From Schmidtea nova (taxonomy: Eukaryota), in contig CM097882.1 in the NCBI GenBank assembly GCA_044892505.1, forward strand, positions 241,056,001 to 241,120,000: a stretch of 64,000 bases of DNA. The letters are read 5' to 3'. The notes under the pieces were generated by a model, which saw only the letters and a program-made list of their open reading frames with translations, did no database searches and was not told the DNA's origin. Within the stretch, counting starts at the first letter, position 1; the number at the start of each line of letters is the position of its first letter. Positions 48,399 to 51,300 of the stretch are shown in pieces. The translations under genes and the position numbers were made by a program.

Positions 48399-51300
48399 CT
48401 ATACAACTATTACTGGTTCTCCTTCGTACAGTTCCTCGTCCTCGATCTGTACCCACATCTCTTCGTGTTTTGATCGTCTTTTCAGCTCTTCTCGTACTTC
48501 TTTTGGTAGTTTTATGTTGTAATTCGTGACCTTTACCTCTGGCCATTTTACTGCTATGGTCTTATTTCTCATGCCATATCTCCAACATACTATCATGATC
48601 GTTATCAGTGGTATACACGCTATGAATACTCCCATGCTGATTACACCCATTATTGTTTTCCCAATGCTCCTTCTTGGAGTCTCACTTTGGTTTATCATCA
48701 CGCCATATTGACCTTTCCATTCTGCTTCCCATTGTTCATATTGTTGTTGTCTCTGTCTGACTTCTTCGATCACTTTCTCTGGTTCCCATCTTTCTTGTTG
48801 ATTTTGTAGTATTTCCTCCGTCTCTGTTTGTTCTCTTTTCTGACTCAATTCTCGGAATTCTAACTTGCGGGTTCTCCCCTTTATCGTTATGTTCCTTGGC
48901 GTGTAATAGGTTTCGCACCTTTCTTGTGGATTTCCTTGTGCATCTACTTCTTCGATTGCACACACTTCGTATTCTGCGTTTGTTTTCAACCTCCTCATTT
49001 CTACCTCGATTGTTTCCCTTTTGTCATTTGATGTCTTTTGACAGTTTCGTAGAGACTCTCTCATACTGTTTGGCATTAATGTCCAACAGATTTCTAGGAC
49101 CTTTTTATGGATCTTCCATATTATCAGAGTCGTTGATTCCGGTTCGTTTTTTATTGACGTCCCTTCTGTTGTCTGTTGAGTTCCTTGACTGTTGGTTGTC
49201 GTGGTTCTTCTTGACTTTCTTTTCTTCTGCCGACTTCCTCCCATTTCGATCGTTCTTGTACCGTTAATTTGCTCTGGCGTCTTGTACAGTTTGCACTCCA
49301 GGCTTCTTTGTATTACTTCTCTTATTCTTCGGATTATGCAAATTTCGTAGGCTTGTCCGACTTCGAATCCATTTAGTTGAAACGGGATTCCTTGTTCTCT
49401 CGTCCTGCATTGCGGTATTATGTTGTTGGTCGATACTCCGATGTATTTTCTCCAACACATTCCAATTGTTCTCCGACCAATGTTTTTTATTTCCACTGTT
49501 ACTACTTCATTCGCAATCGTTTCTTGATCTTGTTTCTTTCTTTTTGGGAACTCAATTATCTCCTTTGCTTGGAACACTTTACACTCGCTTGTTCCTGGTC
49601 TGTTTCCGTTTGCTGCTTTTTCCATGAGGCATAGTTCACATGTTTTCTCTGTTTCCATTTCAGTTATCTCGATTTCCTCATTTGTCTCTGCCTCTCGACT
49701 TTCTCTTGTTTCGCTGATTCCAATTACCTCATTGTTTCGTCCCCAACATCTTCCGTTCGTTGTTCGTTGGTCTTGGATATTTACTAACGTCATTACGCTA
49801 ATATCTATGTCCTCCATGATTCTCTTAATGAGGATTAATATTAATGCTACACATATCAATTCCGGTTGGAATGTTAATTTTCCCGCTGAATTTTTGGTTA
49901 TTCTTTCTTTCTCCGTTCGGTTTCCGATTCCTTCTTCTGCTTCAGATTGATTCTTCCCTTTCTCCGATTCCACTTCTGTTCTTCTCGTTGTCTCTTCGCT
50001 TCTTTTCCCTATCCATTTCTGTATCTTCAACGCTTCCGTTGCTTTGTATAATTGACATGCAGTTACTTGAGGTGCTTTTGGTTCTCCTCTCTGCTTTATT
50101 GCGCATATTATGTATGACTTTTCTTTCTCCAATCCTTTGATTTGGATGACGTCTCGCTTTAGATCTGACAATATACATTTCAGCGTATCGTTTTTCTTCA
50201 GGTTTTCTTTCCAGCATATTCTTTCATATACTTCATTTCCTCTGATTATCTCTAGCGTGACGTATTGTTTCTTGGCTTCTCCTTGTCCGATGATTGTTAT
50301 CAATATCGCAATACACAACATTTCTGGTCTCAAAAGTAGACTTCCTGTTCGTTTTCCATAATTCGCATGTTCGTCTTTTGTTCCACTGTTATCTCGTTCT
50401 TCTGCTTCTCCTTTCTTGTCGTTTCTCGTTGGCTTTGGTTCTTCTTGTCTTTCTTTTTCATTATCCTCCGTTCTTTTGTTGTCATTGTCTTCGTTGTTCT
50501 CTTCGTTGTTGCTTTTGTCGTCGAAATCTCTGTAACCACCCCCTGGTCCTTTGAAAATGTCGTCCTCGACATTGATTTCTTTAATCAATCTTTCATACGC
50601 TTGAACCGCGAGTGTGCTAGACTCGAATTCCCGTATTTCCATATCTTTGGATGGTTCTATGTCTTTTAGTCTACTTTGTTTGATCGTTTCTTTGGCATTG
50701 GCCCATTCATTCACATATTTTCTGAACAAGTCTTTCCATCTTCTCGTTCGTTCGGGTTCCTTTGGATTGTTCGTGAACTTCAAATCTCTTCTCTTTAAGA
50801 ATTCTTCTATTATCTCTGGCTTTCTGTGTCTCAATACCGCGCTTCTGATACACCAATTCTGATTCTGTTCCATATGGTCATTGATCTTGAACACTGGTTC
50901 CTTGGTGATTGGATTCACCCATGTTAGTAATGCTCTCGTTTTCTCTATGTCGTGTATCATTACTGTCAGACTGAACTTCTTTACGTTATTTGCCAGGTGT
51001 TCTATGTCTTCTTGTCTCTTGATGGACTTTATGAACTTGATCATCTCGAAGTTGTTCCACTGTATTGCGATATCTATGATGGAATTATTCTTTCCATTTT
51101 TCCCTTCGATTTTTGCTCCTGCTTCGTATAATTCATTTAGCACTTTCCATTTCGTCTTCTTTCTTGCTGCGATTATCATGATTGTATCTCCGTTGTCATC
51201 GATCGTATTCATGTCTGCTTCACACTTGATCATTGCTTTCGTTATTTCTAGCGCTTCGTTTTCTTTCTTTCGACGTAATGCCCAGTGTATCGGCAATCTC

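Follow-up and report, generated by a model that had tools for sequence, protein, structure and literature searches.

In a 64,000-nt window of the Schmidtea nova genome (contig CM097882.1; all coordinates below refer to this window), we identified a giant retroelement of a known kind whose integrase ORF continues in frame into a family-wide membrane-protein cassette with repeats that are likely FN3-like; such a cassette is probably new for elements of this kind. It occupies the C-terminal 646 residues of the integrase-ankyrin ORF (1802 aa; 48399-53807, minus strand; ORF list) and consists of two signal-like segments (H1 and H2), four repeats (R1 to R4), one transmembrane (TM) helix and a terminal tail of 61 aa. 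All the features of this extension that a sequence-only reading had quoted were recovered at their positions, on the minus strand and in one open frame. Most of the cargo known from Burro elements is intracellular; a surface protein of FN3-like type next to the gB-type Env would provide a testable handle on intercellular movement and host-surface engagement.

By its domain order and cargo, the element is a Burro-type giant Ty3/gypsy retrotransposon. The PR-RT-RH-IN order of such elements is present, the ankyrin repeats and MATH/TRAF cargo they carry were found, and the element is more than 22.9 kb long, running past the edge of the window. All its features lie on the minus strand. A Gag-like ORF with CCHC zinc knuckles (61864..63636; Pfam) is followed by an ORF of 2749 codons (53651..61900) encoding Env, then protease, reverse transcriptase (RVT_1, E 3e-36) and RNase H; Env, a Monjiviricetes-type fusion protein (about 56516-58363; PF24664, E 4.5e-71), shares its ORF and frame with Pol, lying after Gag and ahead of the protease. 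The integrase-ankyrin ORF starts with the integrase (53109..53651; H2C2 zinc finger and rve core, Pfam) and continues with the ankyrin-repeat region (51027..52328; Ank_2, E 1.9e-18) and a charged low-complexity linker (50340..50567; other letters in a diverged copy), which leads from the ankyrin region to H1. Past the end of this ORF come a TRAF2/3/5-like gene, then ORFs for a coiled coil and a small membrane protein, and last the probable 3′ LTR (41072..44372; 3.3 kb, with ends TGTTGG...CCAACA). Burro-type elements have paired LTRs and a total length near 30 kb; a single probable LTR was seen here, as the 5′ LTR would fall outside the window. The flanks of the element are AT-rich, and the window copy has frame changes near 61.9 kb and 53.7 kb and a stop codon in the TRAF gene.

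Several exact Env motifs are common to the window element and two Schmidtea mediterranea GAG-ENV-POL rows in a supplement of PMC13524379 (compared by eye). The likeness to Burro/GYPSM1, as these are described in PMC6431247, comprises the order Gag-Env-PR-RT-RH-IN, an Env in frame before Pol, the mononegavirus-type fusion protein, ankyrin repeats, TRAF/MATH cargo and a length above 23 kb. Pfam scans of ten ORFs gave no match to BIR; for BCL2-like, ubiquitin-like and dUTPase-like domains, by-eye candidates occur at the expected places without a matching Pfam or PDB hit, the published assignments having used HHpred. We found no tRNA gene in the window. A short motif, [RK]-[IP]-[NC]-[MAR], recurs at domain borders between 52550 and 63636 (minus strand), i.e., at the end of Gag, between Env and the protease, and at the ends of the protease, RNase H and the integrase, and is a candidate protease site.

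Read from its N-terminus, the extension begins with H1, an internal signal-peptide-like segment (aa 1157-1178, 50274..50339; hydrophobic span aa 1157-1173) delimited by hydrophobicity and a -3/-1 site, followed by R1 (aa 1180-1258, 50034..50270), which has four Cys and one N-glycosylation sequon, N1206. H2 (aa 1311-1327, 49827..49877), a duplicated signal-like segment with an 11-residue core, was recognised by alignment and hydrophobicity; it precedes R2 (aa 1333-1416, 49560..49811), the most deviant repeat, and R3 (aa 1432-1512, 49272..49514), which was modelled and appears FN3-like by model, structure search and profile. A basic linker rich in Ser and Thr (49143..49271; composition: 14 S/T and 9 K/R in 43 aa) separates R3 from R4 (aa 1556-1638, 48894..49142); R1, R2 and R4 were delimited by alignment and profile. 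An 80-aa stalk (48654..48893), partly helical in a low-confidence model and bearing sequons N1639 and N1706, leads to the TM helix (aa 1719-1741, 48585..48653; hydrophobicity), with a net charge of +2 before and +4 after it. The 61-aa tail (48399..48584) ends in four hydrophobic residues (V-I-V-V), followed by the stop codon. The six sequons between H1 and the TM helix are N1206, N1286, N1296, N1515, N1639 and N1706, and there are 17 Cys in the 540 ectodomain residues versus 4 in the 680 of the ankyrin region and none in the 61-aa tail. Both the sequons and the Cys content favour a lumenal ectodomain.

The four repeats are real. Their length of about 80 aa stood as first described, while the Cys count had to be corrected from two to four per repeat. 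They are diverged, R1, R2 and R4 being 21-26% identical to R3. When repeat pairs were compared with shuffled sequences, at most one of 2000 shuffles reached the score in five of the six pairs; for R2 and R4, 45 of 2000 did. Since the segments were chosen by hand, we ran a leave-one-out profile test: in all four cases, the profile of three repeats ranked the fourth as the best non-training match amongst 868,710 residues (E 5e-6 to 4e-3; 10.6-20.0 bits), the next best match scoring no more than 2.9 bits. A Cys-Trp pair is invariant across the repeats, and R1, R3 and R4 have the spacing of their Cys residues in common (13-16, 23-27 and 15-16). R2 deviates in that Cys replaces the Tyr of the other repeats and that no Cys occurs 13-16 residues past the Cys-Trp pair. 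Moreover, the kinship seen earlier between the two hydrophobic segments extends to their neighbours: an alignment of H1-R1 with H2-R2 shows a single duplicated unit and scores 94, a value reached by none of 2000 shuffles (30 +/- 6). The duplication is old, because self-comparison at the DNA level found no long repeat within the extension.

Searches for relatives of the extension returned no homologue amongst 4238 candidates, and none at E 0.001 amongst 1.84 billion representatives; the repeat profile matched none of 980 candidates, the extension none of 115 metagenome stretches, and phage sequences gave no match. The extension has no significant match to FNDC5, FNDC9, cytokine receptors or CD45, and no LRR or Ig match. 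In a search for long Burro polyproteins, one oyster ankyrin protein was found amongst 1464 candidates, and the integrase did not match the one viral contig compared. For a link to FLRT/LRFN-type surface proteins, with whose FN3 domains the sequence-only reading had compared the motif pattern, we found no support: no such protein occurs in any hit list, and neither the ORF nor the extension has an LRR match. A pair of Cys located in the two final strands is a point of resemblance between the repeats and the FN3 domains of LRR-FN3 proteins (FLRT/LRFN/LRRN).

We tentatively favour, with a probability that we put just short of even, a reading of the extension as a captured host-type type I membrane glycoprotein cassette, duplicated internally and kept in frame, with a role in adhesion or attachment. 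A Burro-type element would have captured the cassette, which, enlarged by internal duplication, would be held at the C-terminus of the integrase-ankyrin ORF. H1 would act as an internal signal peptide, like the Env signal of the element; once it is cut after Ala1178, the ankyrin part would stay attached to the membrane, on the cytosolic side. The repeats would enter the ER lumen, where paired Cys would form disulfides and the sequons would be glycosylated; H2 would either pass into the lumen without crossing the membrane, or provide a back-up signal if H1 is skipped. The TM helix would stop transfer, and the hydrophobic C-terminus may serve export or scaffold binding. Such a protein, displayed by producer cells or by particles, would mediate adhesion or attachment and draw membranes together for the gB-type Env; this role, proposed by analogy with FN3 surface proteins, is itself no more than tentatively assigned.

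The same architecture could instead serve an immune or survival modulator, acting either as a decoy directed at a host ligand or receptor or as a receptor that signals together with the TRAF-like and ankyrin cargo of the element. We consider this rather unlikely, even though the TRAF2/3/5-like gene lies 550 bases downstream, cytokine-receptor FN3 domains are amongst the tied structural matches listed, and apoptosis and ubiquitin regulators dominate the Burro cargo described in PMC6431247. The tail also has one PxExxE motif, but such a motif was seen in 14% of 5000 shuffles. Moreover, PxExxE is a motif of the TRAF6 type, whereas the MATH domain of the element is closest to TRAF5/3/2, and the tail has no TRAF2-type motif. 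A more far-reaching proposal, which we regard as improbable, is that the element encodes its own surface receptor system: a captured multi-FN3 receptor or adhesin, produced from the polyprotein's end and wired to TRAF and ankyrin adaptors of the element, in a swappable signal-ectodomain-TM-VV slot behind the integrase, where related elements would have different ectodomains. If this were true, the retrotransposon would steer host cell contact and survival signalling, beyond an intracellular block of apoptosis.

The membrane topology was assessed with a crude Hessa-type scale applied to 19-mers over the whole integrase-ankyrin ORF. The sole three membrane-compatible 19-mers of the ORF (-2.0, -0.5 and +0.2; next best, +6.8) correspond to H1, H2 and the TM helix; the Env signal segment has -0.4 on the same scale, and H1 and H2 score similarly. 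Pfam and hydrophobicity together support a predicted membrane-anchored product separate from Env, as had been proposed. Signal peptidase sites follow the -3/-1 rule; H1 has such a site after Ala1178, and Met1163 could also begin a signal of 16 aa. The peptidase site of H1 and the charges flanking the TM helix fit a type I layout, which leaves H2 unexplained. Because the ankyrin region and the terminal tail are both cytosolic in the type I reading, the three segments cannot all span the membrane. H2 exceeds H1 in hydrophobicity and is directly followed by Lys-Arg, by which it could stop transfer.

A split topology, in which H2 truly crosses the membrane, would take one of two forms. In one, H2 stops transfer, so that R1 alone would be lumenal, R2-R4 would be cytosolic and the last TM helix would be inverted. 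In the other, H2 would act as signal-anchor for R2-R4, H1 being skipped. The core of H2 is still strongly hydrophobic despite the high divergence of the duplicated units, and R2, which adjoins it, is the repeat that deviates most; 17 residues of H2 were checked and contain no peptidase site, and its flanking charges (+3 before, -1 after) suit a signal-anchor. We nevertheless hold either form to be quite unlikely, as the four-Cys spacing common to R1, R3 and R4 suggests an oxidising compartment for all three, the charge after the last TM helix favours a cytosolic tail, and no Met is found between R1 and H2 from which a separate start could be made. As to the production of the type I protein, a spliced mRNA for the extension is without support because the sole splice-acceptor-like site between 44400 and 64000, at 51590, is distant from Met1163. 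A protease-site-like motif follows the integrase; from the ankyrin region to the end of the ORF, we found no Arg/Lys-led match to it.

The repeats likely adopt an FN3-like beta-sandwich fold. This assignment, first made from a motif pattern, gains moderate support from structure matches, the repeat profile and language-model features, and none from Pfam, fn3 at the curated cut-off matching neither any of the four repeats nor the whole extension. The check by AlphaFold and Foldseek gave a low-confidence model of R3, with listed matches that are mostly of FN3 type at weak scores. In the AlphaFold2 model (pLDDT 53), 40 of 82 residues are below 50 and only the C-terminal hairpin is above 70; the four repeats were the only alignment available for it because no homologue was found in the collections searched. 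A comparison of this model with 48,161 solved chains by VIA-align yielded FN3 entries, so labelled by title or domain content, in all 50 of the matches listed (rmsd 2.0-3.0 over 60-68 residues), with neither Ig domains of the V or C set nor other folds amongst them; the best Z, 7.0, is within noise, in the range that VIA-align calls common, and none reaches 8. With Foldseek, 38 of the 40 matches listed are of FN3 type (best E 0.053; none at E 0.001).

The repeat profile had a single match in the PDB (177,635 sequences, E up to 10), the chitinase 6bt9 at 489-559 (E 1.7), which we take from its signature to be an FN3-like stretch. Language-model features (Atlas) gave eight FN3-type proteins amongst the ten listed, all with scores under the 0.9 mark, and R3 alone had no match in the Atlas search. 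For a single-sequence model of the whole extension (pLDDT 37), the structural matches were barrels and coils rather than FN3; the viral structure library held nothing under E 0.13, and a phmmer search with R3-R4 against the PDB returned one unrelated match (E 1.6). A Leu...Tyr tyrosine corner is a signature of FN3 domains: the Tyr occurs in three of the four repeats (Cys in R2), and the motif aligns with the same motif in 6bt9. In CD45, Cys-Trp lies on strand C, with disulfides across C-C′ and F-G. By analogy, a third reading of the repeats, with Cys-Trp on strand C and CD45-like C-C′ and F-G disulfides, would fit their Cys spacing. In the Pfam comparison, a match of MIT_ATG1 to R4 (E 0.002, 18.6 bits) was rejected: the cut-off is 27, one of the four repeats alone was matched, and the family is helical.

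In the N-terminal half of the repeat, the strand register is in conflict, the first two strands being A/B according to the sequence match and about C/C′ according to the structural match. This conflict, the restriction of higher pLDDT to the C-terminal hairpin, the short distance from the Cys-Trp pair to the Gly-Leu-type motif and the want of a Pfam family match would suit some other small, beta-rich disulfide domain of which only the last three strands mimic FN3. We judge such a domain very unlikely, since profile, structure searches and language-model features each favour FN3, and no other family does so repeatedly.

The extension belongs to the element family and is present across diverged copies, as judged from contigs of other copies. 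These contigs stem from four runs of one study, with at most two samples, perhaps the window's own source, and 1607-2719 of them were placed per run; they cover 30 of 30 bins in each of the four runs. Gap-free pieces over H1-R1 and R3 are 81-85% identical to the window copy (30 records listed), and one R3 piece has 11 gap letters. One contig spans the ankyrin region to H1; in it, the charged linker in between is replaced and H1 is kept. Five indels are listed, one of them in the extension, with the frame kept. At 48404, a loose end of one or two contigs per run, in three runs, reads V-M-I-V versus V-I-V-V in the window copy (by eye). The extension matches the integrase and ankyrin parts in base composition, with A at 0.40-0.44. 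Eight of 18 variants in the extension are at third positions, which gives no clear selection signal; the 40 of 723 places shown are a subset biased to those where the window copy differs from most others. That the extension would be neutral, decaying captured sequence or an insertion specific to this copy is highly improbable: the small variant subset is without selection signal and the window copy is broken elsewhere, but 646 codons are open, the composition matches the element, the copies align gap-free at the identities given, H1 is retained beside a replaced linker, and the loose end is another hydrophobic C-terminus.

The extension sets the window element apart from the Burro elements as described: section 7 of PMC6431247 mentions neither FN3 nor a second membrane protein, and the word "fibronectin" is absent from its main text. 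Furthermore, TRAF is encoded downstream of the integrase ORF in the window element but in the polyprotein or upstream in Burro (PMC6431247). About half of the Burro polyprotein was at first unannotated (PMC6431247). In planarian genomes, Burro elements abound; for one of them, a supporting role in regeneration, via anti-apoptotic cargo, is reported (cited in PMC13465017). For Vesta, Juno and TelKA of bdelloid rotifers, additional membrane proteins encoded 3′ of pol are described; in some of these proteins, cysteines lie between two hydrophobic regions (PMC5408684). In contrast to the in-frame cassette of 646 aa beside a full Env seen here, these are separate short ORF3s without FN3 ("fibronectin" does not occur in PMC5408684). 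A short TM protein serves the cell-to-cell transfer of MDG1-group elements in insects (10.1101/2025.03.14.642691). A planarian secretory cell nidovirus offers another parallel, its polyprotein having gained ankyrin repeats and extracellular modules named after fibronectin, proposed as modulators of host interaction (PMC6211748); it is, however, an unrelated RNA virus, and its FN type II differs in fold from type III. In the literature searched, we found no description of FN3 cargo in such elements, including PMC6431247, PMC5408684 and PMC13524379 with its text supplements; Grohme 2018, Lee 2026 and Repbase may annotate the region.

Animal type I proteins with FN3 domains (FNDC5, FNDC9, cytokine receptors and CD45) resemble the extension in having a signal, FN3-like domains, a TM helix and a short tail, whereas the extension has, in addition, Cys-Trp with a second Cys and the internal duplicated signal. 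The closest integrase relative that we found, on a metagenome contig (L001; 49% identity), presents the same layout: behind the integrase, its ORF goes on in frame to encode a signal-like segment, an ectodomain rich in Cys, a TM helix and a tail with VV at its end. Its ectodomain is, however, unrelated (best E 3.5; no match to the repeat profile). L001, which is cut at the 5′ end, gave no ankyrin, Env or TRAF match. Of 32 integrase-related loci, L001 alone has a membrane-cassette layout behind the integrase, and shared ancestry and convergence are indistinguishable because it is a single case. From this parallel, the end of the integrase ORF would seem to be a place where membrane-protein cargo recurs. 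The plus strand of L001 (3301-4776 and 5011-6528) encodes a second aspartic-protease-like domain after the integrase (E 0.001, below the cut-off), the membrane-protein cassette and a downstream ORF that resembles a DEDD exonuclease by eye, without Pfam support.

Several other features of the window were recorded. The TRAF2/3/5-like gene (46423..47853, minus strand; RING, zinc finger and MATH by Pfam), with its stop codon at 47407-47409, differs in the receptor-binding groove from TRAF3/5 where those carry three serines. Two coiled-coil accessory ORFs (45173-46363 and 47925-48287, minus strand) have no family match above the cut-off; the longer, 45173-46363, may be the Smc-like motif of Burro. 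The small membrane-protein ORF (44575-45105, minus strand) encodes a signal-like start, a short helical ectodomain, a strong TM segment and a basic tail; its weak match to gp41 (E 0.003) is below the cut-off, and it recalls the gp41-like ORF3 of the rotifer element Vesta6c (PMC5408684). Directly before the Env signal segment, the stretch 58421-58903 (minus strand) looks Bcl-2-like by eye, without Pfam or PDB support, and the Env signal segment could anchor it in the membrane. The probable 3′ LTR contains one ORF of 206 aa (41454-42074) and another of 231 aa (42205-42900), both on the minus strand and neither with a useful Pfam match. Nearly identical terminal repeats are seen in three smaller, decayed LTR retroelements, at 16905-21307, 23761-29146 and 37247-40778.
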